Part shown: piece by piece, positions 27,360 to 43,808 of the stretch
Position numbering within the stretch: the stretch's first letter is position 1
How the letters are laid out: every line of letters starts with the position of its first letter
From: an uncultured Clostridia bacterium
Lineage (GTDB): Bacteria; Bacillota; Clostridia; Christensenellales; Borkfalkiaceae
Direction: 5' to 3'
Assembly (NCBI GenBank): GCA_934247855.1
Contig: CAKQKA010000001.1
Coordinates: 1 to 54,327, forward strand
DNA length: 54,327 bases
Translations under genes and position numbers: made by a program
Notes under the pieces: model-generated
What the model saw: the letters and a program-made list of their open reading frames with translations, nothing else
Told to the model about the DNA's origin: nothing
Database searches by the model: none

Positions 27360-27597
27360 AAAAAAAGAGGCGCGAAACGCGCCCCCCGAAATTGCACTAA
27401 AATACCCGCCTGTGCCGTATAGAGTAAATAATAACCCGCTGTTAAAAGCAGGTGGGTGCTTAGCCCAACGAATCTGACTTCCTGTATAACGGATCTGCTC
27501 AAGACAAAAATCCCAGGCGTTGCATATCGTTGCGGACGTCGGCTCCCTTTTTATATTTGTGGATTACATTAGACTCTACCTCGTACACCGCAGGCAC
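27360..27597 (-). ncRNA. stand-alone ~240-nt RNA gene, family not identified
   Basis: Consensus promoter at 27604-27632 (-). Terminator GGCGCGTTTCGCGCC plus an 8-nt U-run (+ coordinates 27359-27383). The 5' end GCCTGCGGTGTA..AGAGT pairs with the 3' ACTCTATACGGCACAGGC. No plausible ORF. Confidence 0.55.
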
Positions 27598-27603
27598 AAC
27601 TAT

Positions 27604-27801: not shown

Positions 27802-29306
27802 ATGGAAAACGTCAAACAAAAGATAATTAATTTCAGACCGATTGTTCTTGCCGCGGTATTTTTTGCCGCGGGGATTGCTTGCGCGTTCTTTGCTTGCTTT
27901 TCAAGGGGTAATGTTGCAATCGGCATAGCGGTTGTTTTTGGCGTGTTGTCTGCTCTTGTAATTTTTCTTTTCGATGATCGCAAGAAAACGTCGATTTGCG
28001 TTTTGTGTTTCATCGCGATTTTTTTGCTCGGTTTCGGGTATTCGTATTTGAAAATTTATCTGGCGAAGAATGCACCCGTAAAGGAGGGCGAAGTTTCGGC
28101 AACCGCCACGGTAGACAGTGTTTCGGTACTGTATGACGGTGCGTTTCTGCTGTCTTTCCGTAACGTTGAAATCGACGGCGAGCATGCTGCCGACGCTACC
28201 GCTTACGCCTATGGCGAAGATGAACCTGTTGCGGGCGAGCGTTGGCGTTTCGACTGTAACGTAAGGAACTCTTTCACGCCCGAAAAAGTTTATTCAGACG
28301 TGCTTTGCGGCAAGTATTATTTCTTTTCCGACCTTGAAAATATAGAAATCGTCGGCGACGAGGCAACGCTTTCCGAAAAGGCTTTTCGGCTTGCGAAGGC
28401 GGTAATAAAAAGCGGAATGAGCGACAAAAGTTACGGCTTGGCTATCGCTTTAACGCTTGCGATACGTCGCATATTCAGGATCGCGTTTCGGTTTATCGCG
28501 CGGCGGGCATTGCTCACGTTTTCGCCGTTTCGGGGTTACACGTCGGTTTGTTTGTCGCAATGTTTGCGTTTGTCGCAAGCAAACTAAAACTTAAACGGCT
28601 TTCGCGCATGCTGTTTATACTAGTTCCAGCCGCGTTTTATTGTTTCGTGTGCGGGTTTCGCCCGTCGTCCGTCCGTGCGCTCATTATGGCAACGGTTGTA
28701 CTGCTGTCATCCGAAATCGGGTTTAAAAGAGATTTTCTGTCATCCATAGCCATTGCGTTTTTCGTGATACTTTGCATAGAGCCGTTCAATTTATTCAACG
28801 TCGGAACGCAACTTTCTTTCCTTGCCGTTACGGGAATTTGTTCTTTGGCAGCTGTGTTCAAGCGCGGGGCAAAGCCGATAGGAAGGCTTGCCGATCCGCT
28901 TTCGGTAACGCTCTCCGCAACGCTCGGAACATTGCCCGTTTTGGTGGATATGTCGGGCTATATGTCGATTATCTCGGTTTTCGCCAATCTCATATTCGTT
29001 CCGATCCTCGGCATCGCATATCAGTTTACGATGGTTTGCTTGCTCCTCGGTTGCGTGGAATATTTGTTTTTCGGTTCGGCTGCGTTTGCCATGTTCTTGC
29101 CGTCGGTTACTCTCAATTTTATAAGCGATGCCGTCGCGTTTTTCGACTTTGAACTCTTCACAGTTCCGCTATATTTCGGCTTTGCCGCGTTCTTCTATTA
29201 TTTCGGGTTGTTTTTTGTGACTGATTATCTTAATATACCTGTCAGAAAAAGAATAATAGTTGTCGCACTTGCTTTTGCGCTTATGATATTTGTTATGGTT
29301 GTATAG
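27802..29306 (+). pseudogene. comEC: ComEC/Rec2 DNA-uptake channel, frameshifted, no metallo-beta-lactamase domain
   Basis: ORF 27802-28587 is the N-terminal TM region. The hallmark AAGIAHVFAVSGLHVGLFVAM is readable only in the -1 frame that continues as ORF 28548-29306. The frames meet near 28458-28462 (CTTGCGATACG where CTTGGCGATACG, LGDT, would be expected). Confidence 0.75.
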
Positions 29307-29885: not shown

Positions 29886-29914
29886 TTGAAAAACTGAAGT
29901 AAAGCATTTATAAT
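29886..29914 (+). promoter_or_regulatory. consensus promoter of the 29965 gene
   Basis: TTGAAA, 17-nt spacer, TATAAT. Confidence 0.55.
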
Positions 29915-29964
29915 TTGTGACGTAACGCAGATTGTCTGTTTATGAACGTATTTGGGGGAAAATT

Positions 29965-30441
29965 ATGAATGATGTAATCAAAACTTTACTTTACAGTTAT
30001 CCGTCTTTCGACGCGGTTGTAGAAGCTACCGATAAACTTGTCTATTATAAGGCGATAACTTCTTATAAGAATAATTCCAAGACGTGCGACCAGATGAACG
30101 AAATTCTTGCGCTTAACGAGCGTTCTTCGCGTATTTGTTGGATTAAAGGTGTTATAGACCGACTTTTAAGTGAGTTGACGCCGTTTGAAAGACAACTTGT
30201 CGAGTATAAATATTTTCATATCGATAAGGCGTACGATTTTGATCCAAGCTCGAGGGGGTATTTCAGAAAGCAACTTAAACTTGAAAAGACGATTGAAAAA
30301 TTGCTTGATTATTTAAAGCCCGACGAAGAGTGGTTTATGGAAAATCTCGGGGATATTTATTTTTTGCGTTCAAAATATAAAAAGATAAAAAAGATGTCCG
30401 AGTGCGGGAAGAAAAACTCCGCGAAAGAAAGAAATCTATAA
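29965..30441 (+). CDS. putative phage transcription regulator (sigma-70 region-4 / ArpU-RinA-like), family uncertain
   Basis: 158 aa from the ATG with a GGGGGA RBS. LTPFERQLVEYKYF resembles region-4 HTH proteins that activate late genes in Firmicutes phages. Confidence 0.4.
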   Translation: MNDVIKTLLYSYPSFDAVVEATDKLVYYKAITSYKNNSKTCDQMNEILALNERSSRICWIKGVIDRLLSELTPFERQLVEYKYFHIDKAYDFDPSSRGYFRKQLKLEKTIEKLLDYLKPDEEWFMENLGDIYFLRSKYKKIKKMSECGKKNSAKERNL

Positions 30442-30609
30442 TATTGTAAAATATTAACGGGGAAATTAAAAATGAGGCGGCTCAGGTTAGGGGTAGTGTT
30501 GCGCTTGTCCGGTATTACGCAATGATGAGCAAAAAATGTGTTTACTAAAAGTGCAAGAAAAAAGTCGTCCGTAAAACAAAGCGAAAGCAAGTTTAAAGGC
30601 GACGCAAAA

Positions 30610-31527
30610 TCATAACAGGTCGTCGGAGTCTTTATCGGTGAAAGCGCACCGATGTTTGCGGCTCGGTTTAAAAAGAAGATAGACGACGCTCAGCGCAACA
30701 AGCGATACGGCTAAAACTATTACGGTTTTCAGCGCGGAATCGGTTCCGGTTGCGTAGGGCGTCGTTTGTTTTGGCGGAAATTCGCTGCCCGAGAGGGAAG
30801 ATGCGTCGATTGGGCTGCTGTCGTTTTTTGATTTTATCGGCAGCGAATGAGGCGGAACGGCGGCATCGGTAAAAGCCTTCGCGCGGACGTAACCTATGTA
30901 TCCGTTTGAATATACGCAGTAAAATTGTTCGCCGTTTATTTCTGAATAACCGTAAAAATGGCAGGTTTTACCGGCGGCGATGACCGCTTTGGGTGTGGTA
31001 GCCTTAGCGTCGGCGAACAAAACCTCGTCGGAGGAAAGTTCAAAATCGCAATCGGGGTACGGGCTGTCGTCGCAAACGTAATCGCAGGGATAGTAATACT
31101 TTATAAGAATAAACCCGTCGCGCGCGGGCAGGTTTGCCGATTCGTCCATATAGCGCACGGAAACGCTGTCCTCGCCCACGGATAAAACCTTTACAAAATA
31201 CCCGTATGGCAACACGAATTTGGCTATAGTGCACCCCGGATCGGCGTAAAACACGGTGTTTTCGTCAAGAATACGGGAATATTTTTGCGTTGTCGTACCG
31301 CTTTGCAAAGCTGCGGTCGCATATTGCGCGTCGGCATTTTGCAAAGCTACGTTCGCGTGATTTTGTCCGACGGTTATCATATTTTGCTCGTTAGCCGCCG
31401 TATAATTTTGCGCGTTGCAAGGCAAAACGCTTTGAGGACGGACTTGCATTATAAGAATGCAAAACGCAAGCGTTATACAAAATATTAAATTCAGGGCCAA
31501 AATGGGCAGAGAGTTTCTTTTTTTCAT
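30610..31527 (-). CDS. hypothetical secreted/membrane-anchored protein
   Basis: 305 aa with an N-terminal signal-like helix, two beta-rich SH3-like segments and a C-terminal TM anchor (VIVLAVSLVALSVVYLLF). TGATATAAT lies 9 nt before the ATG, so the mRNA may be leaderless. Confidence 0.55.
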   Translation of the reverse strand: MKKRNSLPILALNLIFCITLAFCILIMQVRPQSVLPCNAQNYTAANEQNMITVGQNHANVALQNADAQYATAALQSGTTTQKYSRILDENTVFYADPGCTIAKFVLPYGYFVKVLSVGEDSVSVRYMDESANLPARDGFILIKYYYPCDYVCDDSPYPDCDFELSSDEVLFADAKATTPKAVIAAGKTCHFYGYSEINGEQFYCVYSNGYIGYVRAKAFTDAAVPPHSLPIKSKNDSSPIDASSLSGSEFPPKQTTPYATGTDSALKTVIVLAVSLVALSVVYLLFKPSRKHRCAFTDKDSDDLL

Positions 31528-31600
31528 ATCGTTTGTATTATATCATAAAGAAAATAACGAAAAAGGTCGTTTTTTGACGTAAGGGGGTAATATTGGTCGA

Positions 31601-33004
31601 ATGCGCGAAATAATAGAAAAAATTCACGAGATCGAGAAGGAAGAAAAACGCCGTACGAGCAGGCTTGACGGTTATAATAAAGATAAAATTCATCTTAAGC
31701 AAATGGCTTTTCACAAATGCAAAAAGGGCAACAGGTGGGTGTTCGGCGGAAACCGAAGCGGCAAAACCGAGTGCGGCGCGGTGGAAACGGTGTGGATTTC
31801 AAGAGGTATTCACCCGTACCGCGAAAACCGAAAAAATACTTTCGGGTGGGTGGTTTCATTGACTTCGCAAGTTCAGCGCGACGTGGCGCAAAAAAAGATA
31901 TTGTCCTATCTTTCCCCGCGTGATATTGTGGACGCGGTTATGCTCAGCGGGCGCAAGGATAGCCTCGATAACGGTGTTATAGACCAACTTTTTATAAAAA
32001 ACGCGTTCGGCGGGATATCTGTTATCGGGTTTAAAAGTTGCGACCAGGGGCGTGAAAAATTTCAGGGTGCGTCGCTGGATTTTGTGTGGTTCGACGAAGA
32101 ACCGCCCAAGGATATTTACGACGAGTGCAAAATGCGTTTGCTTGATAAACGCGGTTGCATGTTCGGAACTATGACTCCGCTCAAAGGTCTGACTTTTATT
32201 TACGATGAGATTTACCTTAATGTGAACGACTCGCCCGACGTGTGGTATGAGTTTATGGAATGGGGAGATAATCCCTATCTTGACGAAGAAGAAGTGCGCA
32301 AGATGACGGAAAGTTTATCTAAAGACGTGCTGGATTCCAGACGGTACGGGCATTTCAAAGCCGACAGCGGCATGGTGTATTCCGAGTTTGACGAGCAAAA
32401 ACACGTTTTACCCGAGCCGTTTGAACTGCCGTACGACTGGCAGGCGTGTATTTCTATCGACCCGGGGCTGCATAATCCGCTTTCCTGCCACTTTTACGGT
32501 GTGGATTACGACGGCAATATTTACGTTGTCGCCGAGCATTACGAAGCGGAAAAAACTATTTCTTACCACGCGCGGGCAATCGAACGCATTGCCGATTCGC
32601 TCGGTTGGCATCGCCGCTTGGACGGCAGGCTCGAAGCGTTGATCGACAGCGCGGCAAATCAAAAAACGCTTGCTTCCTCTAAAAGCGTTACAGAATTGTT
32701 CTTTGAAGAGGGTATCGCTTGTAATCCTAACGTTAATAAAGAAAAGTTTGCGGGCATTGCGCGGGTGAAAGAGTATTTTAACGCGAACAAAATAAGAATT
32801 TTCCCTAACTGCAAAAATCTTATCCGCGAGATAAAAAATTACAGGTGGGGTGACGACGATTCGCCCATAAAAAAGGACGATCACGCTTTGGATGAGTTAC
32901 GTTATTTTATAATGTCGCGCCCCGAGAATAAACCGCCCAAACGCGAACTTACCGAAATACAAAAGGACAAAGCAAGGCTTTATCGTCGTTTGTCGCGCAG
33001 GTGA
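31601..33004 (+). CDS. terL: phage terminase large subunit
   Basis: 467 aa. Walker A GGNRSGKTECG, Walker B LDFVWFDEEP, C-terminal RNaseH-like nuclease segment (ISIDPG...DSAA...DDHALDELRY). Confidence 0.85.
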   Translation: MREIIEKIHEIEKEEKRRTSRLDGYNKDKIHLKQMAFHKCKKGNRWVFGGNRSGKTECGAVETVWISRGIHPYRENRKNTFGWVVSLTSQVQRDVAQKKILSYLSPRDIVDAVMLSGRKDSLDNGVIDQLFIKNAFGGISVIGFKSCDQGREKFQGASLDFVWFDEEPPKDIYDECKMRLLDKRGCMFGTMTPLKGLTFIYDEIYLNVNDSPDVWYEFMEWGDNPYLDEEEVRKMTESLSKDVLDSRRYGHFKADSGMVYSEFDEQKHVLPEPFELPYDWQACISIDPGLHNPLSCHFYGVDYDGNIYVVAEHYEAEKTISYHARAIERIADSLGWHRRLDGRLEALIDSAANQKTLASSKSVTELFFEEGIACNPNVNKEKFAGIARVKEYFNANKIRIFPNCKNLIREIKNYRWGDDDSPIKKDDHALDELRYFIMSRPENKPPKRELTEIQKDKARLYRRLSRR

Positions 33005-33018
33005 AAGAACCGAAAGTG

Positions 33019-33037
33019 CCGATAATCGACCTATAGG
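33019..33037 (-). repeat. dispersed intergenic motif, copy 10
   Basis: + strand reads CCGATAATCGACCTATAGG followed by CGGGGTTTT; 15 nt after the terL stop. Confidence 0.9.
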
Positions 33038-33087
33038 CGGGGTTTTATGTGTATTTGTGTGCATTGCATGCGGCATGTGAAAGTCGG

Positions 33088-33104
33088 GCTATAGGTCGAT
33101 TATT
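33088..33104 (+). repeat. dispersed intergenic motif, copy 11
   Basis: GCTATAGGTCGATTATT, inverted relative to copy 10 and 69 nt away. Confidence 0.85.
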
Positions 33105-33195
33105 TTATATTAAAAAAATATCGGATTAAAAAGCATTGAAGACTGCAAGCTGTATAAAAAGTGTGCGTTTATGCTAAAAAAACATGCTTAATCGA

Positions 33196-33224
33196 TTGTA
33201 AAACGCGCCTGATTGTGCTAAAAT
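33196..33224 (+). promoter_or_regulatory. promoter of the GNAT gene, near-duplicate of the cysS promoter
   Basis: TTGTAA AACGCGCCTGATTGTGC TAAAAT versus the cysS TTGCAA AACGCGCGCGATTGTGT TAAAAT. Confidence 0.5.
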
Positions 33225-33254
33225 AAAAAAAATATCTATATGAGGTGTGAGCGA

Positions 33255-33800
33255 ATGAAATCAGAAAGATTAAAACATTTTGAAGGCGATATTTTCGAGC
33301 GGGCGTACGAGTTATATAAATCGTCCTTCCCCGTTGAAGAACGGCGCGACGATGCCGAACAGCGCAGGGTTCTTGAAAACGATGCCTATCATTTTGACAT
33401 AATCACGGAAAACGGCGAGTTTATCGGCATTATGCTCTATTGGGAAGTGAATAGTCTTATCTATCTTGAACACTTTGCGATTCGCAGTGATTTGCGTAAC
33501 AAAGGTTTCGGCACTGTCGCTCTTGATTTATTAAAGGAAAAAGGCAAGACTATACTGCTTGAAATCGAACCGCCCGTTGGCGATATAACCGTTCGCAGGT
33601 ATGAATTTTATAAACGCAACGGCTTTGTAATGAATTCTTTTTATCATATTCAGGCAAAATATCATTTTGGCGATGCCGATCTCGAACTGAAAATTTTGTC
33701 TTATCCGAGGCTGCTTGAAAAGGATGAATATCTCGCTTTTTACGGGTATATGACTCGTGAAATCGGTATTCAGCCGAGCGTGTCGGGCGAGATTGTTTAA
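33255..33800 (+). CDS. GNAT family N-acetyltransferase
   Basis: Acetyl-CoA motif FAIRSDLRNKGFGTVALDLL; ATG at 33255 with a GAGGTG RBS. Confidence 0.8.
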   Translation: MKSERLKHFEGDIFERAYELYKSSFPVEERRDDAEQRRVLENDAYHFDIITENGEFIGIMLYWEVNSLIYLEHFAIRSDLRNKGFGTVALDLLKEKGKTILLEIEPPVGDITVRRYEFYKRNGFVMNSFYHIQAKYHFGDADLELKILSYPRLLEKDEYLAFYGYMTREIGIQPSVSGEIV

Positions 33801-33986
33801 AACCGAGGACGATTTGCTTGCTCAATACGAAAAAACTATTGTTGAAAACTTTTACAAGGTAAACGACGCCGTGCGTCCGTACGTGAACGTTTTAGGCACG
33901 AAGATATCGTAAAGCGCGGCAACGTCGGAAAAATCGACGGCGAGGATGGCGACGAAATCGACTTTTATAAAATACATGAATATGTA

Positions 33987-34003
33987 GATAATCGACCTAT
34001 AGA
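33987..34003 (-). repeat. dispersed intergenic motif, copy 12
   Basis: + strand reads GATAATCGACCTATAGA followed by CGGGCTTTT. Confidence 0.9.
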
Positions 34004-34017
34004 CGGGCTTTTGCTTG

Positions 34018-34034
34018 TGTATAGGTCGATTTTT
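34018..34034 (+). repeat. dispersed intergenic motif, copy 13 (partial)
   Basis: TGTATAGGTCGATTTTT. With copy 12 it forms a perfect 9-bp hairpin, CGACCTATA/TATAGGTCG, followed by a T-run. Confidence 0.6.
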
Positions 34035-34103
34035 TATGATATAATAATTTTGTTACGACGAATGGGTGCTTTATAAATGGCGAGTGTGGGGTACTTACTT
34101 TTT

Positions 34104-34307
34104 TCAATCTTCAAGTCCTAATAAGTAATCGGTCGAAACATTAAAAAACTTCGCAATCGAAATTACATAAGAAATCTTCGGCTCGTTTATTCCGTTCTCC
34201 CAGTTAGAGATTGCGGCGTCCGTCGTATTAATATTTTTGGCAAGTTGCTTCATGGAAAGACCTTTTTCAAGCCTCAACTCCCTTAATCTTTGTGAAAACG
34301 TACTCAT
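34104..34307 (-). CDS. XRE-family HTH repressor (Cro/CI-like)
   Basis: 67 aa. LRELRLEKGLSMKQLAKNINTTDAAISNWENG is a canonical XRE HTH. Confidence 0.9.
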   Translation of the reverse strand: MSTFSQRLRELRLEKGLSMKQLAKNINTTDAAISNWENGINEPKISYVISIAKFFNVSTDYLLGLED

Positions 34308-34313
34308 GTATAC

Positions 34314-34370
34314 ATTATACTAAGAAAACTTAATATTTTACTTGACACTAAGAAAACTTAGTGATATTAT
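34314..34370. promoter_or_regulatory. divergent promoter/operator switch
   Basis: Palindromic operators CTAAGAAAACTTAA (34320-34333) and CTAAGAAAACTTAG (34348-34361). Rightward TTGACA (34342)-17 nt-TATTAT (34365), with the second operator filling the spacer. Leftward TATAAT (34314-34319, minus strand) lies 6 nt before the XRE ATG. Confidence 0.7.
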
Positions 34371-34405
34371 TATCATAAATTTATCCGATTACGTTTTTTT
34401 ACTTG

Positions 34406-34708
34406 CTTAGCCAGTAGTGATAGCGTTTGAACCCATTTTTGCGGCAATAAATCGGTTTTTGCTGTGTTAAACTCCCATCAACGTACGGTGGTTAAGTACG
34501 ATTTCGGTCGTTTGCCTTGCAAAAACCGTACCGCACAGCGGCGATTTCTTATCCGCAAAAATGCGTAGCACCGTAAAGAGCGTATTTTTAGATGTTTTTT
34601 TGCGAGCACGAATAATGCTGTACTGCCGTACTGCGTTATGAATGGTCGCATAAAGGGGCTAAAAAGCCGCCTTTACGGTGGAGTCAAACGCCATTACCAC
34701 TGGCTAAG
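34406..34708 (+). ncRNA. ~300-nt highly structured leader RNA (or MITE-like element), unassigned
   Basis: 25-position closing helix 34406-34430/34684-34708 (22 WC, 1 GU, 2 mismatches). Nested helices: 34436-44/34553-61 (9 bp), 34449-54/34542-47 (6), 34461-66/34534-39 (6), 34483-89/34525-31 (7), 34569-78/34671-80 (10), plus hairpin 34617-34634. Confidence 0.6.
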
Positions 34709-34742
34709 AGGAGGAATAAGGTTAATTTTAAAGGAGAAAGTT

Positions 34743-35792
34743 ATGAAGCATTCAACAAAAACAAAATTGATGGTTTTTATTACCGGTATTCTTTCGTGCA
34801 TGTTGCTGGTCTCGTTTGCCGCTTGCAAAATATCTGAAGAAAGCGATGAAACGAACGATTATTTTAAAGAATACAATATGTATCTGGTGTATGCCGCATC
34901 CGAGGATATTACGCCGCTTGATTATGAAACCTGGCTGGCAACGGTTAAAGGCGATAAGGGTGATAAAGGCGAGGACGGAAAAGACGGCGCCGACGGAAAG
35001 TCTGCTTACGAAATATGGTTGGAAAACGGACACACGGGAAGTCAAACCGATTTTCTTGAATGGCTTAAGGGCGAAAAAGGCGATAAGGGCGAAACAGGAA
35101 AAGACGGAACGAACGGAACAAACGGAACCGACGGTAAAGACGGAAGAGGTATAGAAAAAATAACATATAAAGACGGAACGTTAACTATAATTTATACCGA
35201 CGGAACAGGCGAAACAATTATTCTGCAAAATGAATCGAAAGGAACCGAAGGGCTGGAATACAGCCTATTATCGGATGATACGTATGGAGTAAAAGGCGGT
35301 ACAGCCTTGTACCTTAATAAGGTGACAATCCCCGCTACATATAAAGGAAAAGCGGTAACCCAAATTTTGGAGCATGCATTTGAAAATTCGACAAATTTGA
35401 AAGAAATACAATTACCCGATTCGATCGAGAAAATACAAAGCTATGCTTTTAACGGATGCAAGGCTTTAGAAAATATTACAATTCCGTCATCCGTGAAATT
35501 TATTGGCGAATATGCATTTTACGGTATAAAAAATGCTACGTTTGAAGATGAAGAAACATGGAAAAATGTGGTGAAACCGCGCTCGGTATATAAATTTAAC
35601 GTTTTTATCAATAATTCAGGATATCCCGACAGTAGTCATAAATTATATGCTGTCGATAGTTTTAGTTTAGTTAAATTATTATCGGACAGAGTCAATGTGC
35701 AAGTTAGTAGTTATGATCAAATGTTTTTAGAAAGTGGATGTAAAAACGAATACAAGAATTTAACTTTATATGAATATAGTTACAGCAAATAA
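34743..35792 (+). CDS. lipoprotein with collagen-like Gly-X-Y repeats and BspA-type leucine-rich repeats
   Basis: Lipobox LVSFAAC. GDKGDKGEDGKDGADGKSAYEIWLENGHTG...GEKGDKGETGKDGTNGTNGTDGKDG resembles phage-fibre collagen segments. C-terminal LRRs (ILEHAFENSTNLKEIQLP, IQSYAFNGCKALENITIP). AAAGGAG RBS before the ATG at 34743. Confidence 0.8.
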   Translation: MKHSTKTKLMVFITGILSCMLLVSFAACKISEESDETNDYFKEYNMYLVYAASEDITPLDYETWLATVKGDKGDKGEDGKDGADGKSAYEIWLENGHTGSQTDFLEWLKGEKGDKGETGKDGTNGTNGTDGKDGRGIEKITYKDGTLTIIYTDGTGETIILQNESKGTEGLEYSLLSDDTYGVKGGTALYLNKVTIPATYKGKAVTQILEHAFENSTNLKEIQLPDSIEKIQSYAFNGCKALENITIPSSVKFIGEYAFYGIKNATFEDEETWKNVVKPRSVYKFNVFINNSGYPDSSHKLYAVDSFSLVKLLSDRVNVQVSSYDQMFLESGCKNEYKNLTLYEYSYSK

Positions 35793-35835
35793 ATCAATTT
35801 TTAAATAAATAAAATACAAAATAGTACTTAAAAAT

Positions 35836-35861
35836 CGCACTCTTAACGGGGTGCGTTTTTT
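35836..35861 (+). terminator. intrinsic terminator
   Basis: CGCACTC pairs with GGGGTGCG (7 bp including one GU), then TTTTTT. Confidence 0.75.
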
Positions 35862-35959
35862 ATGCCCAAAATTGTTGCTGTGGCGAGTAATTGTAGGAAA
35901 AGTGCGATTTTTAACGCAAAGATTTTTAAAAAAACGTGAAAAACGTTGTCATAAAACTC

Positions 35960-35987
35960 TTGAAAACTGAAAAATCGGCGATATGAT
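35960..35987 (+). promoter_or_regulatory. promoter of the packaging/head operon
   Basis: TTGAAA, 16-nt spacer, TATGAT; ~170-nt leader before the 36162 ATG. Confidence 0.45.
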
Positions 35988-36161
35988 ACCTTGCGTGGAT
36001 GAACGGCGAACGGGTGGCGGAGCAAAACGCAGATATTCGGTTGCTGCGAGTGCTGTGCATTAACGGCTGCAACGGCGCGCGTAACTAAATAACCGTGCGT
36101 AAAGTTAAGCGATGTGTCATAAGCAAAACAAGCGGGAGGCGAAGTTATACGGGGGAAATAA

Positions 36162-36635
36162 ATGAATAGTGAAACGGTGGAAAAAATACGCGAAGCCCTT
36201 ATAAGGCGCGCGGTCGGTTACGACACCGAAGAAACCGTCGAAGAGTATTCGGGTACGGGCGAGGACGTGACTATGGTCAGGCGTAAAGTTACCAAAAAGA
36301 ACGTTCCGCCCGATATATCGGCGGCAAAACTGTTACTTGAAGAAGCGGGCGTCGATTATTCGGCGATGACCGACGAACAGCTCGAAGAAGAAAAGCAACG
36401 CTTGCTCGAACTACTTAAAAAAGCCGATTGCCCGAAACATGTTAAAACAGCAAAAGCCGAAAACAAGCAAAACGACGGCGTGTCCGAAGATAATGCCGCC
36501 GAAAAGCGCGCAGCAAAAAAGCAAGCGGCAGACGGCGGGCAAACGCCAGACGGCGATAAAAAATCAGACGGCGGACAAAGCGTTTCGGCAAAGCGAAAAG
36601 CCGAAAAAAGGAAGGCAAAAAGTGAAGATAGTTAA
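36162..36635 (+). CDS. terminase small subunit-like protein with a K/A/D-rich tail
   Basis: RRAVGYDTEETVEEY...VRRKVTKKNVPPDISAAKLLLE resembles the XtmA-type TerS core (...K.vpPDvtA..fwLkNR). The tail contains three 18-nt CAGACGGCG-based coding repeats. Confidence 0.45.
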   Translation: MNSETVEKIREALIRRAVGYDTEETVEEYSGTGEDVTMVRRKVTKKNVPPDISAAKLLLEEAGVDYSAMTDEQLEEEKQRLLELLKKADCPKHVKTAKAENKQNDGVSEDNAAEKRAAKKQAADGGQTPDGDKKSDGGQSVSAKRKAEKRKAKSEDS

Positions 36636-36819
36636 AAACGAGTATGAAACGATTTGCGACGTCAAGGGTTGCACGCGAATGGCAGAATACAGGTTGATTA
36701 TGGACGTTGCGAGCGACGGACAGGTTTGTATGTGTATGGAGTGCTTAAAGGAGTTCAATCGCGAGGCGTCGAAGAAAATCAGAGCGGAGGAAAGGAAAAA
36801 TGCAAAAAAAGACGGCTGA
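36622..36819 (+). CDS. small Zn-ribbon-like protein
   Basis: GTG start with an AAAGGAAGG RBS; 65 aa with Cys pairs CDVKGC and CMCMEC. Overlaps both neighbours, suggesting translational coupling. Confidence 0.45.
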   Translation: MKIVKNEYETICDVKGCTRMAEYRLIMDVASDGQVCMCMECLKEFNREASKKIRAEERKNAKKDG

Positions 36820-38680
36820 AGAACAGCTTAATCAAAGGCTGGCTAAAGAGATTACCGAAGATTTTGAAAGGCGGCGCGAGGAGCGCAGAACGCTCGAGCA
36901 GCAATGGAAGCTGAACATCAATTATCTTATGGGCAATCAATACGCCGAAATTGCGCCGAGCGGCGAGATTGACGAAGAAGTTAAGGATTATTTCTGGCAA
37001 GGCAGGAACGTCTATAACCATATCGCGCCGATCGTTGAAACGAGGATTGCTAAACTTGCAAGGGTTCGCCCTGTTATGTCCGTACGGGCGTCGGGCGAAG
37101 AAGAACGCGATCTGAAAGCTGCAAAAATGGCAAGCGCGCTGCTTTCTACCACTTTTTCGCGGTTGGAGATGAGCGACGTGATTTACAAGGCGACTTTATG
37201 GAGCGAAACGCTGGGCACTTCTTTTTACAAGGTGACCTGGGACTACAACGGCGGTAAGAAGGTGGGCGAAAACGATAAAGGCGCGGTGTACGAGGGCGAC
37301 GTAAGAGTTGAGGCTCTTTCGCCGTTCGATATCTACCCCGACAGCCTTTTCCGAGAGGATATCGACGATCAGAAGAGTATAATTCACGCCCGTGCCATGA
37401 ACGTTGACGACGTTGCGGCGATTTACGGCAAAAGGCTTATCGGCAGCGACGTGGACGTATTTTCGCTTGAAAAAAACACTTGCGGAGGGCAGACGTTCTT
37501 TTCCAAACGCATAACGGGCGGCACTCTGCGCGACAGCGTTGTGGTAATCGAACGGTACGAAAAGCCGAGCGAAGAGCACCCCAACGGCAGAGTTGTAACA
37601 GTTGCTTCGGGCGAGGTGCTTGCGGTTGGCGAACTGCCGTATATCAACGGCGAAGAGGGCAGGCGCGTTTATCCGTTCGTGCGGCAAATTTCAATCAATC
37701 AGGCGGGTTGCTTTTTCGGCGTAAGCGTAATAGACAGGCTTATTCCGTTGCAGCGAGCATATAATGCGGTAAAAAACAGAAAACACGAGTACTTAAACCG
37801 CGTAAGTATGGGCGTTGTTACCGTAGAGGACGGATCTATCGATACCGATGCGCTCGTGGAGGACGGCTTGTCGCCGGGTAAAGTGCTTGTTTACAGGCAG
37901 GGTTCAACGCCGCCGCGGTTTATGGCTTCGGCAACCGTGCCGCCGGACTTTACCTATGAAGAAACAAGGCTTGAGCAAGAGTTCATCAACGTCAGCGGAG
38001 TAAGCGAGTTTTCAAGAAATTCCGACGTGATGTCGCAGAATATAAGCGGCGTTGCGCTGGAGCTTATGGTCGAGCAGGACGAAACAAGGCTTACCACGTC
38101 CGCCGAAAACGTGCGCCGCGCCGTGCGGATAATCGGCAAACAAATAATAAGATTGTTCCGCCAGTACGCCAAACCGTCAAGAATGATGCGGGTGGCCGGG
38201 CGCGGCAATTCGGTCGAACTGTATTATTTTAATTCGGACGACTTAACCAGCGACGACGTTGTGTTCGATACCGAAAACGAACTGTCGTCAAGCCCCGCGC
38301 AAAAGAAAAGCGCGGTGTACGATATGTTAAAGGCGGGACTTTTGTCCGACGACGACGGCAAGATGAACCAGCGCACTAAGGCGAAAATACTTGAACTATT
38401 GGGGTTCGGCACGTTGTCGGGCGCGCAGGATATAACCAATCTGCACATAGACAAGGCTCAGCGCGAAAACATAGGCTTTTCAAACATGGATTTCGAGCCG
38501 GAGGAATTCGACGACCACGCGATTCACGTTACGGAACACACGCGGTTTTTGCTGTCCGAGGATTTTGACGGCAAGGAAGAGATAAAAAACAAAATAATAT
38601 TGCATCTTCGCAAGCACAAACAGCTGATCGGCGTCGAGCTTGCGGAGAATATTTTGGAGGATAACAATGAAGAAAAATAA
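36800..38680 (+). CDS. phage portal protein
   Basis: 626 aa, positioned between terminase-like and scaffold/coat genes. N-terminus EQQWKLNINYLMGNQY is portal-like. Confidence 0.75.
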   Translation: MQKKTAEEQLNQRLAKEITEDFERRREERRTLEQQWKLNINYLMGNQYAEIAPSGEIDEEVKDYFWQGRNVYNHIAPIVETRIAKLARVRPVMSVRASGEEERDLKAAKMASALLSTTFSRLEMSDVIYKATLWSETLGTSFYKVTWDYNGGKKVGENDKGAVYEGDVRVEALSPFDIYPDSLFREDIDDQKSIIHARAMNVDDVAAIYGKRLIGSDVDVFSLEKNTCGGQTFFSKRITGGTLRDSVVVIERYEKPSEEHPNGRVVTVASGEVLAVGELPYINGEEGRRVYPFVRQISINQAGCFFGVSVIDRLIPLQRAYNAVKNRKHEYLNRVSMGVVTVEDGSIDTDALVEDGLSPGKVLVYRQGSTPPRFMASATVPPDFTYEETRLEQEFINVSGVSEFSRNSDVMSQNISGVALELMVEQDETRLTTSAENVRRAVRIIGKQIIRLFRQYAKPSRMMRVAGRGNSVELYYFNSDDLTSDDVVFDTENELSSSPAQKKSAVYDMLKAGLLSDDDGKMNQRTKAKILELLGFGTLSGAQDITNLHIDKAQRENIGFSNMDFEPEEFDDHAIHVTEHTRFLLSEDFDGKEEIKNKIILHLRKHKQLIGVELAENILEDNNEEK

Positions 38681-39365
38681 CGACGCTCTCGAAAACGCGG
38701 GCGGAAAAGAGATATTATGCGAAACGGAACAAGGTGCGGACAAGCCGGCAAGCGACGCGCCCTCCGTCGGCAAGTTCGCCGACGCGGAATCTCTTTTGAA
38801 AGCGTATAATCAACTGGAGTCGGAATTTACCAAACGCAGTCAAAGACTTCGGGAGTTAGAAAGGGAATATGCCGATTTAAAACAGGAACAATCCGATAAT
38901 CGCGCCGAATCGGAAGCCGTACAGGATGAAACGGGGAGTGCGGCGGAGGAAAGGGCGAGTAAGGACTCCGTTATCGGCGAGGACGGCGGTATCGCAATCG
39001 AGGTGGAACGCTTTTTGAAAGACAATCCGGAGGCAGGATTATATGCCGACGAAATTGTTAAAAGAGCCGACCTCGAGGGCGAGCCTGAGAGCGGTTTTCT
39101 TGATCGCGCATACGTCGGCGTGCTTAAAGACATGCTGCGCCGCGAGAAAGAAAAAATAACCGACGAATTCATTCTGGAGCGCGCGCTGAACACCAAGTCC
39201 GTGCGCGACGAGATTATTCGCGGTTATCTTGCGGAGATTTATTCCGCAAAAAAAGAGTGTCTTTTGACGGGGAGCAGCGGCGAATCCGCGATAGCCCCGC
39301 CGATAAAGCCCTCTACTATATCCGAAGCGGGCAAAATGGCAGTTTCGGTTTTAAGAAAAAAATGA
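38667..39365 (+). CDS. phage scaffolding protein
   Basis: 232 aa, acidic coiled coil (LESEFTKRSQRLRELEREYADLKQEQ) with a basic C-terminus. GGAGG RBS. Sits directly upstream of the coat gene. Confidence 0.65.
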   Translation: MKKNNDALENAGGKEILCETEQGADKPASDAPSVGKFADAESLLKAYNQLESEFTKRSQRLRELEREYADLKQEQSDNRAESEAVQDETGSAAEERASKDSVIGEDGGIAIEVERFLKDNPEAGLYADEIVKRADLEGEPESGFLDRAYVGVLKDMLRREKEKITDEFILERALNTKSVRDEIIRGYLAEIYSAKKECLLTGSSGESAIAPPIKPSTISEAGKMAVSVLRKK

Positions 39366-39383
39366 TAAGGAGAAAACAAAACT

Positions 39384-40559
39384 ATGGTAACAATGAACAG
39401 TGCGGACAATGCGCTTAAGTCACTCTATCTCGGCGTTGTATCCGAGCAACTCAATACGAGCGTAAACCCCTTGCTTGCAAAAATCAAGCAGACCACGCAG
39501 GACGTGTGGGGTAAGGAAATTCGTCGCCTTGCGCAGTACGGTATCAACGGCGGTATCGGCGCGGGTACGGAGGACGGAACTCTTCCTGCCGCGGCGGGTA
39601 ATAATTACGACCAGTTCGTGCTTACGCTTAAAAACCTTTACGGCACTATCGAAATTTCCGATAAAGCGGTGCGTGCGTCCGAAAACAACGTCGGCGCGTT
39701 CGTGAACCTGCTCAACGCCGAAATGGAAGGTTTGCTTAAAGCCTCTTCCTTCAACTTCGGCAGAATGCTTTTCGGCGACGGAAACGGTACGCTCGGCAAA
39801 GTATCCGAGGTTAAAGACGACGGTTCGGTCGTGCTCGACGGCGTTAAAAACGTAGTCGAAGGTATGGTAATAGATTTCCTTTCGTCCGCGGGCGCTGCAA
39901 TCGACGGAGCAAGCGGCAGAAGAATTACTTCGGTAGACAGGGCGAGTAAGACTATAACCGTCAGCGGAACCAAACTTACTTCCACTACCGTTCCCGCAAA
40001 CAGCATTATCACCGTTCAGAATTCTTACGGCAAGGAAATCACAGGTCTTAAAGCGATTTTCTCGTCCACGGGCAAGCTTTACGGACTTGACCGAGCCACA
40101 CATAAATGGCTTATTCCGCACATGAAAACCAACGTGGGTACTATTTCCGAAACGGTTATTCAGGAGGCTATCGACACGCTCGAAGAAAACACGGGCAGTC
40201 AGGTAAACTTCATCGTCTGTTCGTCGGGCGTTAAGCGTGCGTATCAGAAAGCGCTTGCGGCTTACAAACGCAATATAGACGTTATGGAACTGCAGGGCGG
40301 TTACAAGGCTTTATCATACAACGGTATTCCCGTCGTGTCCGACAGATTCTGCCCGGACGGCACTATGTACCTGCTCAATACCGACGACTTCGCGCTGCAT
40401 CAGCTTTGCGACTGGAAATGGCTCGAAGGCGAGGACGGCAGGGTAATCAAGCAGGTTGCCAACAAGCCCGTATATTCCGCTACGCTCGTTAAATACGCCG
40501 ATCTGGTATGTACAAGACCGTGCGGTCAGGCTATGCTCAGCGGTATAACCGAAGCATAA
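39384..40559 (+). CDS. phage major capsid (coat) protein
   Basis: 391 aa, position after scaffold, with long conserved-looking beta-rich sequence. Family (HK97-fold, possibly P22-coat-like) not verified. Confidence 0.7.
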   Translation: MVTMNSADNALKSLYLGVVSEQLNTSVNPLLAKIKQTTQDVWGKEIRRLAQYGINGGIGAGTEDGTLPAAAGNNYDQFVLTLKNLYGTIEISDKAVRASENNVGAFVNLLNAEMEGLLKASSFNFGRMLFGDGNGTLGKVSEVKDDGSVVLDGVKNVVEGMVIDFLSSAGAAIDGASGRRITSVDRASKTITVSGTKLTSTTVPANSIITVQNSYGKEITGLKAIFSSTGKLYGLDRATHKWLIPHMKTNVGTISETVIQEAIDTLEENTGSQVNFIVCSSGVKRAYQKALAAYKRNIDVMELQGGYKALSYNGIPVVSDRFCPDGTMYLLNTDDFALHQLCDWKWLEGEDGRVIKQVANKPVYSATLVKYADLVCTRPCGQAMLSGITEA

Positions 40560-40585
40560 TTCATTCTATTATTGTCCGGCATGCA

Positions 40586-40864
40586 ATGCCAGCCAAGAGT
40601 AATACGAACCCCGCCAAAACGCTGATATTTACACCCTTTTTGTCAAACTCTCGCTTGAAGTACGTCTAGTACGTCGGCGTTCGACTTTGCCAAAAATCAT
40701 CGAAAATAGCAGCGTTTTGGTTGCAGACAAGTCTTGCGCCCATGTTTTTAGGTAAGACAAGGCGCGTGAGCGCGTTAATACTACACGTATAACACGCGAA
40801 TGCAACGCTGTATTAGCAAAAACACGGTCGCAAGACCGAGGTTCGCTTTATTCTTGTCTGGCAT
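40586..40864 (+). ncRNA. ~280-nt helix-bounded intercistronic element after the coat gene
   Basis: ATGCCAGCCAAGAGTAA (40586-40602) pairs with TTATTCTTGTCTGGCAT (40848-40864): 15 WC, 1 GU, 1 mismatch. Inner 12-bp helix 40613-24/40710-21. GNRA hairpin CGGTCGCAAGACCG (40826-40839). No promoter seen. Confidence 0.5.
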
Positions 40865-40908
40865 CTGGGCGGGTAATCCGCCCCGAAATAATTATTCGGA
40901 GGAAAATC

Positions 40909-41472
40909 ATGACAGTAAAAAATGTGCTTTGCGAGGCGGCGAAATTGCTCGGTGAAAGCGACGTCGTAAATTATCTGTCCGATAAAATACCCGACGATGT
41001 CGCCTATTGCGAAGAAACCGAAACGGCGTTGAAACATTGTTACGACGTGGTTATCGACGAAATCGCTTGCGAATATATGCCGCTTATTTATAGCGAAAAG
41101 TTGAGCGCAAAAAGCGGAACAATCGATTATTCCGACTTTTCAAAAACGCCCGTGCGCATTAAAAAAGTGTGTGACGAAAATGATAATAAGTTGCCCTATA
41201 GGTCGTTTATCGACCATTTGGAAGTAAATAGCGACTATGCGTCGGTGACCTATGAATACAAACCCGAAACGCAAAACGGCAACGACGAGGCGTATTATTC
41301 AAACGGCATAATCGGCGTGTACGTTTTGTCTTACGGTATTGCCGCGGAGTTTTGCACCGAGCGCGGAAGAATTGCCGACGCCGAGGTGTGGATCGGTAAG
41401 TTTGCAAGTGCGATGCGTGCGCGCGTCGCCGAAAAAGGTCGGCTGAAAATAAAAAACAGGAATTGGTGCTGA
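40909..41472 (+). CDS. hypothetical phage protein (possible head-completion/adaptor by position)
   Basis: 187 aa, GGAGG RBS, first gene after the coat gene. Confidence 0.6.
   Translation: MTVKNVLCEAAKLLGESDVVNYLSDKIPDDVAYCEETETALKHCYDVVIDEIACEYMPLIYSEKLSAKSGTIDYSDFSKTPVRIKKVCDENDNKLPYRSFIDHLEVNSDYASVTYEYKPETQNGNDEAYYSNGIIGVYVLSYGIAAEFCTERGRIADAEVWIGKFASAMRARVAEKGRLKIKNRNWC
41195..41212 (+). repeat. dispersed motif, copy 14, inside a CDS
   Basis: CCTATAGGTCGTTTATCG read in frame as PYRSFID within ORF 40909-41472. Confidence 0.8.
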
Positions 41473-41473
41473 A

Positions 41474-42892
41474 ATGTATTACAATAAACAGGCGATAAAA
41501 GCTACCGTCGGGCGAGGTTCGGTTACCGTCAAAGATTTTTCCGCGGGTATAAACGGGAATAAAGACGAAGAAAATTTATCGCTCGGCGAGTGCGCTTTTT
41601 CGTATAATTTCAATATGCAGGGCGGCACGCTTAAGGACGGAAACGGCGTTAAAAAATCCGATTTCGGCAACAGTCCCGTATTTTCTGAAGCGGGCGTTAA
41701 GCCTGAACGGCTGTATTTTTATAAGCGATACAACAAGGATGCAAAGGCGTACGACGAGTATTTACTGATTTATGCGAGCGATAAAGAGATTTATGCGGCA
41801 AAAAGCACGGAGGAAAAGTTTAAAAAAGTGGACGGGCTGTATTTTTACACGCCGCCATACGCTTGTTCGTATAACTACATGGGCGATGACGTAATGATTT
41901 TTTCCTCCGACGAAAAGATGAAAGTTTACGACGGAACGACCGTCACCACGGTGGAAAACGTGCCGTCGGTAACGTCTATGTGCATTCATTCCGAGCGGCT
42001 TTTTGCAACCGAAGGCGGTACTAAAACTTCGCTGTGGTTTTCCGACGATTTCAATCCGCTTAACTGGAAAGTTTCGCTTGACGAGGCGGGTTTTATCGAT
42101 ATACGCGAGGGTGTGGGCAGTCTTTTAAAGGTTGTGTCTTTCAAAGATTACGTCTATGTTTTTGCCAATTACGGTATAGTGCGCGTTTCGGCATACGGCG
42201 ATCAGACGGAGTTTTCTGTTGACGGAATTGCCGCGTCTTCGGGAAAAATCCGCGGCGATAGCATTGCCGTGTGCGGCGACAGGGTGATTTATCTTGCGGA
42301 GGACGGGTTTTATTTGTTTTCGGGCAGTTCTCCGCAGCGAATAATGCGCAAAATCGACGGTAAAATCGCGGGCGCGGATAACTCCGACGCCAAAGGTTGC
42401 TATTTTAACGGAAATTATTATTGCAAGCTGAAAATGCAGTCCGATTGCGGCGTGCGCGACGTGCTTATAAAATACGATATTCACCGCGGTACTTTTGCGG
42501 TATCGAGCGAACTCGATATTAACGATTTTGTCGTTGCGGACGGCGAAAAGGCGTGCGAATTGCTGTTTTTGATAAACGGTAAAGCGCAACCGGCAATGCT
42601 GTCGGACAGGGCGGAAAACTTTTCCGTTCCGCTCGATAAGCATTGGCTGAGCGGTAAAACCGACCTCGGTACCACCGAAACAAAAAGGGTAACGAGGCTG
42701 TCGCTGAGAACGCTTACGGAGATTTACGTTACCGTAAAAAGCGAGCGCGGAAGTCGAATATTGCACTTTTTCGGAAGTAGCGAGCGGCAGTCGCGCGCGG
42801 TCGGGTTAAAGGGCGATTTGTTTACCGTAAGCATAGATTGCCGAACGCCGGGCGCAACGATATCTGCGCTCAGAATAGAATACGAATACTGA
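41474..42892 (+). CDS. hypothetical phage protein, possibly P22 gp10-like tail-hub/neck protein
   Basis: 472 aa, coupled to the upstream stop, beta-rich and repeat-like. The size, position and C-terminal ...ISALRIEYEY ending recall P22 gp10. Weak, from recall only. Confidence 0.55.
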   Translation: MYYNKQAIKATVGRGSVTVKDFSAGINGNKDEENLSLGECAFSYNFNMQGGTLKDGNGVKKSDFGNSPVFSEAGVKPERLYFYKRYNKDAKAYDEYLLIYASDKEIYAAKSTEEKFKKVDGLYFYTPPYACSYNYMGDDVMIFSSDEKMKVYDGTTVTTVENVPSVTSMCIHSERLFATEGGTKTSLWFSDDFNPLNWKVSLDEAGFIDIREGVGSLLKVVSFKDYVYVFANYGIVRVSAYGDQTEFSVDGIAASSGKIRGDSIAVCGDRVIYLAEDGFYLFSGSSPQRIMRKIDGKIAGADNSDAKGCYFNGNYYCKLKMQSDCGVRDVLIKYDIHRGTFAVSSELDINDFVVADGEKACELLFLINGKAQPAMLSDRAENFSVPLDKHWLSGKTDLGTTETKRVTRLSLRTLTEIYVTVKSERGSRILHFFGSSERQSRAVGLKGDLFTVSIDCRTPGATISALRIEYEY

Positions 42893-42914
42893 AAAATACC
42901 GAAAGAGGTTAGTT

Positions 42915-43781
42915 ATGCAAGATACTGTAAGACGAATCGAAAATCTTGAAAAACGATTATCGCGGCTTGAAAAAAGCGAAAAAACCGCCTGTTATAACTT
43001 TTATCTGGCGACGAAAGAACGAACGGTTGCTTCCCGCAAGCACGAGATGAGTTTTACGTTTGTTTCAAAATGCGAGCAATGTTTGTTTTTTACGCTTGAA
43101 ATCGAAACTCAAAGTCCGAAATACAATGCCGTAATAGAGGTTGACGGTGCGAAAGCCGTTGCCGCGCAGTGCGAAAAAAACGGTAAAATCGAATTTATCG
43201 CGCCGCTTAATGCGGGTGAAAAAACGATTTCCGTAAAACTAAGTTCGACCTCGTCGTTCTTTGTAAGGCGGGCAACGCTTAAAACGTACGGCGCGATCGG
43301 ATATCCCGATGGCGAATGTTTTGTAACCGTTATAAACGAGGGACTTAAAAGTCATGTTTGCTATTGTTACGATAACGAACTGCTTGTAAAAGAGTACGTC
43401 GAAACGTTGCTTACGATGATACAGATTCAGGGCGCAAAGTGCGGTACGATCTGCAAGGTCGGCGATTTGCTTGCCGTTTTTTACATCGACCTTTCGGGTA
43501 TGCTTTGGGGCAGGTATTACACGAGCGACGAGTATGATTTAGTGCGTTCATGCCTTATTGATCAGGGCGTATCGGCGGTTTGCGCGCTTTCCGGCGGAAA
43601 CGAGGCGACATTGTTTTCGGTAAAGGGCGGCAGGGTGTATCGTTACACGGTGGATAAAAATTTCAATCTTACAACGCAGATTACCGAGTACGGCGCACGG
43701 CGCGTTTCCTGTGATCCGTCGCTTCCGGGCTACATCATAATAACCGACTTTTCCGGTAACGGAAAAATTATAAAAATATAA
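42915..43781 (+). CDS. hypothetical phage protein with an N-terminal coiled coil
   Basis: 288 aa, AGAGG RBS. RRIENLEKRLSRLEKSEK, then a beta-rich domain. Could be a needle/plug by position. Confidence 0.55.
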   Translation: MQDTVRRIENLEKRLSRLEKSEKTACYNFYLATKERTVASRKHEMSFTFVSKCEQCLFFTLEIETQSPKYNAVIEVDGAKAVAAQCEKNGKIEFIAPLNAGEKTISVKLSSTSSFFVRRATLKTYGAIGYPDGECFVTVINEGLKSHVCYCYDNELLVKEYVETLLTMIQIQGAKCGTICKVGDLLAVFYIDLSGMLWGRYYTSDEYDLVRSCLIDQGVSAVCALSGGNEATLFSVKGGRVYRYTVDKNFNLTTQITEYGARRVSCDPSLPGYIIITDFSGNGKIIKI

Positions 43782-43808
43782 AATAAGCCATTCTCAAGGG
43801 GGGTAATT

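Follow-up and report, generated by a model that had tools for sequence, protein, structure and literature searches.

The window, as we call the whole stretch of 54,327 nucleotides analysed here, comes from an uncultured Clostridia bacterium. Pfam and PHROG scans identified within it a large terminase gene (31601-33004), a P22/SU10-type portal gene (36800-38680), and a major head protein gene (39384-40559), and for this reason we placed the locus in a phage-derived island. In approximately 40 related viral contigs, the gene directly after the terminase gene encodes a homologue of a 157-amino-acid protein (36162-36635 in the window), and the portal gene comes next. Because the relatives run from the terminase gene to the 157-amino-acid gene to the portal gene, we regard 33005-36161 as an inserted accessory (moron-type) cassette. 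This cassette holds a GNAT gene, an XRE gene, the element that is the subject of this work, and a lipoprotein gene. The features on either side of the element are as follows.

34104-34307, minus strand: XRE-family helix-turn-helix repressor gene, 67 amino acids (Pfam HTH_3, E = 4e-18)
34342-34370, plus strand: predicted sigma-70-type promoter (promoter scan, 11/12 matches)
34707-34742, plus strand: native 3' leader of the lipoprotein gene, joined to the left flank of the element in the empty site L266 (see below)
34743-35792, plus strand: lipoprotein gene, 349 amino acids (Pfam LRR_5, E = 3.4e-18; PHROG matches to tail-fibre collagen-like segments)
35836-35855, plus strand: intrinsic-terminator-like hairpin and T run after the lipoprotein gene, kept in the deletion variant L132 (see below)

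The XRE gene is divergent from the lipoprotein promoter and is not part of the element. An operator within the spacer of this promoter had been described in the original prediction, and we found the sequence in place: TTGACA at 34342-34347, a 17-nt spacer, TATTAT at 34365-34370, and a TG upstream of the -10 hexamer. The palindromic operator, CTAAGAAAACTTAG, occupies 34348-34361 inside the spacer, and a second operator-like copy lies at 34320-34333 as a direct repeat. The promoter region is conserved in relatives that are filled, empty, or deleted at this site. The lipoprotein combines a collagen-like repeat with a BspA-type leucine-rich repeat.

Between this promoter and the lipoprotein start codon, the original prediction placed a dedicated multi-helix regulatory or noncoding RNA belonging to the leader. 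The interval 34377-34742 does fold strongly, and its nested complementarity is beyond chance, with a minimum free energy on the plus strand of -135.3 kcal/mol (z = -7.38 relative to dinucleotide shuffles). The predicted 25-position closing helix (34406-34430 with 34684-34708) is present, and an inverted repeat search extended its arms to 34406-34435 and 34679-34708 (30 nt, 83% complementary). The same search recovered the perfect 10-bp helix proposed to close a second domain (34569-34578 with 34671-34680). For the first domain, described as a stem of four tiers, the outer helix was found (34431-34444 with 34553-34566), but the two innermost tiers are not kept in related copies. These tiers (34461-34466 with 34534-34539 and 34483-34489 with 34525-34531) are complementary in the window, whereas the family consensus instead pairs 34454-34462 with 34519-34527 and forms a small GTAC hairpin in this module. 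The minus strand folds as well as the plus strand or better (-130.7 kcal/mol, z = -10.15). This gave an early indication that the structure belongs to a DNA palindrome and not to one transcript.

The interval had been said to match no known riboswitch or large noncoding RNA class, and the Rfam searches agree. With Rfam 15 at the gathering score, the whole window gave only a 6S RNA, which lies elsewhere, and no match for the element; at an E value of 10 or less, positions 34000 to 35000 gave only noise.

A dedicated cis-regulatory leader RNA, that is, a riboswitch-like sensor or attenuator controlling the lipoprotein gene, would account for the very stable plus-strand fold (z = -7.4), for its position between promoter and start codon, and for the compensatory changes among relatives that are described below. 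It does not account for the state of this leader in a close sibling. Searching with the lipoprotein itself, we found a contig, L266, whose lipoprotein (P0011) is 97% identical to that of the window. This contig spans the locus from the end of the XRE gene through both operators, the promoter, and the leader to the start of the lipoprotein gene, but it lacks the element. It reads ...ACGTATTTTTACTTGCT-TA-AGAGGAGGAAT...ATG (in a longer reading, ...CCGATTACGTATTTTTACTTGCT-TA-AGAGGAGGAATAAAGTTAACTTTAAAGGAGAAAGTTATG), and the window reads ...ACTTGCT-TA-(G34410...C34704, 295 bp)-TA-AGAGGAGG. When 34410-34706 (297 bp) is removed, the window aligns to L266 without a gap, with 9 mismatches in 298 nt. 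The junction was set by this explicit virtual excision; MAFFT had put the gap of the filled/empty alignment in the wrong place. The window and L266 are thus a classical filled/empty pair with a 2-bp TA target-site duplication, and the element is an insertion into a preexisting leader of about 65 nt, which it lengthened to about 365 nt. The features of the insertion, none of which was assigned a strand, are as follows.

34408-34409: TA target-site duplication, left copy (a single TA stands in the empty site L266)
34410-34704: body of the element, G...C (excision of 34410-34706 aligns to L266)
34410-34434: left terminal inverted repeat, type A, GCCAGTAGTGATAGCGTTTGAACCC (repeat search)
34436-34561: internal hairpin module 1, where the family is most conserved; the sole internal module in L242
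34569-34680: internal hairpin module 2, closed by the perfect 10-bp helix
34680-34704: right terminal inverted repeat, type A, GGAGTCAAACGCCATTACCACTGGC (repeat search)
34705-34706: TA target-site duplication, right copy (comparison with L266)

The 25-nt terminal arms are complementary at 22 of 25 positions, and base 34680 is common to module 2 and the right terminal repeat. A profile built from 10 copies of the family (nhmmer) matched 34408-34706 of the window with an E value of 8.5e-91. Open reading frames within the element (34 to 96 amino acids) had no Pfam match, and coding capacity for a transposase is absent. The insertion is therefore short and noncoding, is bounded by terminal inverted repeats, has a target-site duplication seen by comparison of filled and empty sites, and exists in dispersed, near-identical copies (see below). 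Bacterial MITEs are defined by terminal inverted repeats, 5'-TA-3' termini, a target-site duplication, and transcripts that form stable stem-loops (PMC2229807), and we assign the element to them because its properties fit that published definition. We consider it very probable that 34410-34704 is one copy of a 295-bp noncoding, nonautonomous DNA transposon (MITE), inserted at a TA. It sits in the leader of a surface lipoprotein gene on a phage-derived island. The original prediction had offered an approximately 303-bp MITE with imperfect terminal inverted repeats of about 26 bp as its alternative, and this was correct almost to the base. As a kind of element, a MITE is ordinary; we found no earlier description of this family.

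The empty site also settles what belongs to the leader. An AGGAGG at 34709-34714 had been noted immediately after the 3' arm of the closing helix, and it is there. However, it lies outside the element, and since the empty site has it too, we count it as part of the native leader; it does not appear to serve as the ribosome-binding site. It stands 29 nt upstream of the ATG and is changed to AGAAAAGG in the 97%-identical relatives L136 and L139. The likely ribosome-binding site is GGAG at 34733-34736, 6 nt before the ATG at 34743, and the AGGAGG is likely nonfunctional.

Three further siblings, L132, L137, and L138, were considered as empty sites and rejected, since their deletion also takes most of the lipoprotein gene. 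They lack 1,343 bp (34410-35752), from the first base of the element to a TA, and run from ...ACTTGCTTA straight into CAAGAATTTAAC..., the last approximately 35 nt of the lipoprotein open reading frame, followed by its terminator. Such a deletion may have arisen when a transposase cut the left element end at TA|G and repair proceeded with loss of neighbouring DNA; the alternative is that the shared end point is a coincidence.

Next, we looked for copies elsewhere. DNA-pattern scans failed and the element is open in several frames, so we used its spurious open reading frames as "protein" queries to reach diverged DNA copies. A 57-amino-acid pseudo-open reading frame (34478-34651, minus strand) searched against metagenome contigs gave four copies with about 85% nucleotide identity in unrelated contexts. 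Further copies came from protein searches with alignments or concatenations of such frames, followed by contig look-up. Complete copies of 293 to 299 bp, 66 to 99% identical, were found at nine further chromosomal loci with unrelated flanks; loci with a full-length copy include L238, L252, L236, L237, L253, L248, L246, and L240. The copy in L238, for example, lies between a 315-amino-acid and a 208-amino-acid open reading frame, and the counterpart of the latter in L253 has a weak ACPS domain. Size variants were also found: a 187-bp form with hairpin 1 only (L242), a truncated copy (L248, 10032-10154), and a form of about 836 bp with extra hairpin modules (L239 and L243 to L245). Two family members lie 6.3 kb apart or less in L240 and within 20.9 kb in L248. 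Overall, at least 11 distinct loci, each with its own flanking genes, carry the family. The copies in L237 and L253 are 99% identical, as are those in L238 and L252, and the flanks differ within each pair; near identity at different loci implies recent movement. Dispersed copies with target-site duplications had been named beforehand as an outcome speaking against the RNA, and this is what was found.

Several searches of viral and plasmid sequences were negative. BLASTN of the element against a phage collection and a plasmid collection gave no match. Three exact patterns had 0 matches each among viral contigs: the left arm, a conserved 21-mer of the core, and the terminal repeat of type B (see below). 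A type A 20-mer matched 11 times, about as often as chance would give, and these matches fall into two sets of unrelated coding sequences. The repeat GTTCGAACCC, of type A, has a tRNA-like look; its matches in viral contigs are coding sequence. The element was absent from the terminase relatives (n = 50, viral contigs) and from the best 80 XRE relatives in viral contigs. The identical XRE protein occurs on 18 contigs, and the element is present at 97 to 98% identity in at least 7 among the places listed. Nothing similar was found upstream of lipoprotein homologues at 94 loci in viral and genome collections; the same was true of 74 more distant lipoprotein homologues.

Orientation relative to neighbouring genes is mixed. 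The element is in sense between codirectional genes in L253 and antisense in L252 and L248. In 4 of the 9 chromosomal cases (L238, L246, L240, and L242) the genes on either side converge on it, and those beside the window copy diverge. Copies thus adjoin unrelated genes, often at their 3' ends and antisense, and the conserved gene association in a fixed upstream orientation that marks riboswitches was not seen. Within the window, the ribosome-binding site lies outside the structure, which leaves no obvious expression platform. Together with the distant homologues whose leaders hold nothing similar, the lack of an Rfam match, and the strand symmetry described below, these results make a dedicated leader RNA very unlikely, and the empty site by itself largely refutes it.

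All complete copies are bounded by TA|G...C|TA, but their terminal repeats are of two types. Type A, GCCAGTGGTGATGGTGTTCGAACCC, is found in the window, L238, L252, and L239; type B is GGGATTCCATTCGTCATCACTAACT, with a GGGAAAAC variant. Both types are 25 nt long, match at 7 of 25 positions (manual count), and enclose the same core. Two unrelated terminal-repeat sequences around one core are atypical for a MITE family moved by a single transposase. The filled/empty evidence for the TA duplication comes from the window copy (type A) only; for type B, the flanks of the copies suggest the same duplication.

Duplication of TA is a hallmark of IS630/Tc1/mariner transposition. A TA-targeting cut-and-paste DDE transposase of this type would bind the terminal repeats and move the element in trans, and from the TA duplication alone we infer the IS630/Tc1/mariner family. 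Neither the window nor the examined copy loci yielded a transposase gene or an insertion sequence whose terminal repeats match, and none of ten window open reading frames of 300 to 360 amino acids is a transposase. In terms of such a MITE, the long closing helix would simply be the two terminal repeats pairing with each other, and the two inner hairpins would be palindromic modules that the element carries.

A closing repeat that varies in sequence yet stays complementary, and that encloses separate hairpin domains, also has a retron-like look. We therefore weighed a guide RNA of a reverse transcriptase or nuclease, either an msr-msd with a1/a2 repeats or an omega or bridge RNA. No gene for a reverse transcriptase, TnpB/IscB, or an IS110-type recombinase adjoins any copy; the neighbours in the window are the XRE, GNAT, and leucine-rich-repeat lipoprotein genes. 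Rfam gave no match even at permissive thresholds, and the empty site, together with the duplicated TA, indicates DNA transposition. We give this explanation almost no weight.

To examine conservation of pairing, we derived a consensus structure with RNAalifold from an alignment of 10 sequences (A4). The consensus has 108 pairs, and 95.2% of cells are paired, versus 42 to 46% when partners are slid by 1 to 3 columns. Both sides have changed in 30 pairs, 19 of them in the terminal-repeat helix and 11 in hairpin 2 (helices 8 to 10). Most of the 19 double changes in the terminal helix are due to the swap between type A and type B, and covariation there needs no RNA, because both repeats must match for one transposase. 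In module 1, pairing in helices 2 to 5 is 96 to 100% across the copies; these helices hardly vary and show no pair changed on both sides. The covariation check put forward with the RNA thus does return compensatory changes, but they are confined to the terminal repeats and one internal hairpin and they are strand symmetric. G·U cells number 34 on the plus strand (12 columns) versus 36 on the minus strand (14 columns), the RNAalifold energy is -111.0 kcal/mol on the plus strand versus -114.5 kcal/mol on the minus strand, and single copies favour either strand. G·U pairs confined to the transcribed strand, the signature of strand-specific RNA pairing, were not observed. Because the compensatory changes are strand symmetric, they do not rescue the RNA reading. 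Taken together, the empty site, the dispersed copies, and the strand symmetry contradict a dedicated RNA of this leader.

The compensatory changes in hairpin 2 indicate that its folding is maintained, by selection or by templated repair. A purely selfish-DNA model alone does not explain this upkeep. One derivative of the hairpin stands on its own in the island.

40613-40738, minus strand: solo, diverged module 2 hairpin without terminal repeats (profile positions 143-266, E = 5.3e-12, nhmmer)

It lies just downstream of the major head protein gene and forms a long hairpin (z = -3.4 for the region), and a solo module 2 copy was found in L141 too. These observations bear on whether the modules are kept for the host, as in a domesticated structured repeat of the REP/BIME or BOX kind, whose hairpins would serve as transcript-end stabilizers, terminators, or protein-binding sites and whose mobility would be secondary or extinct. 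Such a repeat would suit the modular build, in which a pair of terminal repeats encloses one, two, or several hairpins, as well as the maintained fold of hairpin 2, the solo hairpin right after the major head protein gene, the 4 of 9 chromosomal copies between convergent genes, and a terminator-like site on the minus strand inside module 1. However, recent transposition is indicated by the polymorphism between filled and empty sites, by the TA duplication, and by copies that are 99% identical yet lie at different loci; mixed orientation does not fit one strand-specific role, and a terminator or stabilizer makes little sense for the window copy, which is in a 5' leader. Domestication is also compatible with a MITE and differs only by claiming a host benefit. 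We consider it unlikely.

We rate as similarly doubtful a further possibility, that the two-hairpin core, and not the terminal repeats, is the selected unit. The core would then be a mobile functional module captured by at least two unrelated sets of 25-nt repeats, surviving also as solo hairpins, and spread by at least two TA-targeting transposases between chromosomes of gut Clostridia and phage-like elements. If so, such a module, whose fold compensatory changes preserve, might for instance mark transcript ends or direct processing, or its structure might favour its own transposition.

Returning to the MITE, we asked what its insertion would do to the leader. The element would be passively cotranscribed from the XRE-controlled promoter. 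The ribosome-binding site at 34733-34736 is outside the predicted fold, and the terminator scan found no plus-strand terminator-like site inside the element; for these reasons, the gene is probably still expressed under XRE control. By analogy with other repeats, the likeliest side effect would be altered mRNA stability or processing, and the double-stranded RNA helix of about 25 bp may attract RNase III. Cotranscribed Correia/NEMIS repeats are RNase III substrates and change the levels of neighbouring mRNAs (PMC2229807), and a similar effect has been proposed for cotranscribed BOX, RUP, and SPRITE repeats (PMC3049150).

Classic bacterial MITEs are shorter than 200 bp. Size above that range is one of three uncommon traits of this family, the others being a core with two terminal-repeat types and modular hairpins with solo derivatives. 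The Correia/NEMIS elements of Neisseria are alike in being noncoding and dispersed, with terminal inverted repeats of about 24 to 26 bp, 5'-TA-3' termini, and a TA duplication, in having size variants that differ by an internal block, and in giving transcripts that are long stem-loops (PMC2229807). They differ in length (107 to 155 bp versus 295 bp here, about twofold), in having one stem where the window element has two independent long hairpins, and in sequence, which shows no similarity; the hosts here are an uncultured lineage of Clostridia from the gut and a phage-derived island. The RUP element of Streptococcus pneumoniae is likewise a MITE of Firmicutes that inserts at TA, and it is the best-documented bacterial case of trans-mobilization by an IS630-family transposase, IS630-Spn1 (PMC2229807; PMC3049150). 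However, RUP is 107 bp long and shares its terminal repeats with a known insertion sequence, whereas no parent was found here and two unrelated terminal-repeat types share one core.

[quoted passage not shown] Cotranscribed BOX elements are expressed, and their secondary structure is expected to influence nearby genes (PMC3049150), but their module sequences are unrelated to those of the window family. Stowaway MITEs, which derive from Tc1/mariner, share the TA duplication, terminal inverted repeats, a length of a few hundred base pairs, and strong fold-back potential (see also PMC6881990). They are eukaryotic, and the likeness is in mechanism only.

These results remove a false lead, because what looked like a convincing new large structured RNA is a transposon insertion, and the locus is unfit for riboswitch searches. 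They describe a MITE family from uncultured Clostridia of the human gut, for which a clean pair of filled and empty sites shows the TA duplication, and place it on both bacterial chromosomes and a phage-derived island. MITEs common to hosts and their viruses have been documented at large scale and proposed as markers that link virus to host (PMC11602168). The filled leader of the window and the empty leader of L266 form a natural pair for the effect of a 295-nt structured insert on expression of a surface protein. The swap of terminal repeats and the deletion that starts at the element end are small but real puzzles of how such elements evolve and do damage. Finally, many reading frames run open through the element, and gene-calling programs join it to adjacent genes, which produces spurious N- and C-terminal extensions in metagenomic protein catalogues.

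The MITE in the lipoprotein leader belongs to a family in which one core carries different ends. A core of ~245 bp is common to copies at L236, L237, L253, L248, L246 and L240 and to those in the window, L238 and L252, where it is enclosed by one of two terminal inverted repeats (type B in the first six, type A in the window, L238 and L252). These repeats are of equal length, 25 nt, but are unrelated, matching at 7 of 25 positions. All of these copies have TA at both ends. Because the same core lies inside two unrelated repeat types, always bounded by TA, the family implies either that terminal repeats have been exchanged or that the core was captured by two transposase systems.

Other forms were also found. 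A composite of ~836 bp (L239, 727-1562; also L243, L244 and L245) begins and ends with a type A repeat and contains several additional partial copies of hairpin modules 1 and 2, a modular build in which it resembles BOX elements. It adjoins at least two different genes, one Spo0A-like (L239) and one encoding a 1945-aa protein (L243). At L240 (5276-5556), 2.2 kb from a type B copy, a third arm type (GCAATCAGTTATATCGTAG and its complement) surrounds a diverged module similar to hairpin 1, and a second related unit follows it. This third-arm repeat may represent another related family of repeats within that genome.

Module 2 also occurs alone in the window:

40613-40738, minus strand: solo diverged copy of hairpin module 2 (profile match, E = 5.3e-12)

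This copy, which lacks terminal repeats and folds into a long hairpin, is placed between the major head protein gene (end, 40559) and the next gene (start, 40909) and is found in sibling contig L141 too. It might serve as a transcript-end structure.

Three sibling contigs, L132 (5860-5900), L137 and L138, carry a 1343-bp deletion equivalent to window positions 34410-35752, in which the MITE is lost along with most of the lipoprotein gene. Since the deletion starts at MITE base 1, next to the TA, and its far end is also at a TA, it suggests a transposase-induced break followed by repair with loss of DNA.

The MITE is open in many reading frames, and gene callers therefore join it to adjacent genes. 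For example, a 384-aa "extended" lipoprotein open reading frame (ORF; 34638-35792) starts inside the MITE, at 34638. MITE sequence likewise forms the N or C termini of database proteins P0008, P0009 and P0010, namely, a uracil-DNA glycosylase (UDG-domain) protein, a cNMP-binding protein and a 234-aa ORF.

Near the XRE gene, an operator-like motif is present twice:

34320-34333: 14-bp palindromic operator-like motif, CTAAGAAAACTTAA
34348-34361: 14-bp palindromic operator-like motif, CTAAGAAAACTTAG

The copies are spaced 28 bp apart, and one is inside the rightward promoter's spacer. This arrangement fits repression of the lipoprotein promoter by the XRE protein, together with autoregulation.

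Between the terminase and XRE genes, the cassette differs among siblings. Where the window has one 186-aa GNAT, L132 (6415-9103) encodes two proteins, one of 438 aa that combines TIR_2 and methyltransferase domains and one of 368 aa with a double GNAT; L133, L135 and L140 add a 66-aa gene. Accessory or defense-type cargo seems to have a hotspot here.

The surrounding phage-like region (~29900-45100) spans only ~15 kb, with comEC-like ORFs on one side and yqfD/phoH/era on the other. Its head and packaging genes encode a large terminase, a possible small terminase, a portal, a major head protein and one virion structural protein; among the scanned ORFs, none was recognized as an integrase, tail or lysis gene. 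Possible identities for the region are a defective prophage, a satellite and an island resembling a gene transfer agent. Two ORFs that overlap (27802-28587 and 28548-29306) divide the comEC-like sequence between them, and immediately upstream of the comEC region is an RNA gene:

27399-27599, minus strand: 6S (SsrS) RNA gene (Rfam RF00013; 49.1 bits versus a gathering score of 46.4)
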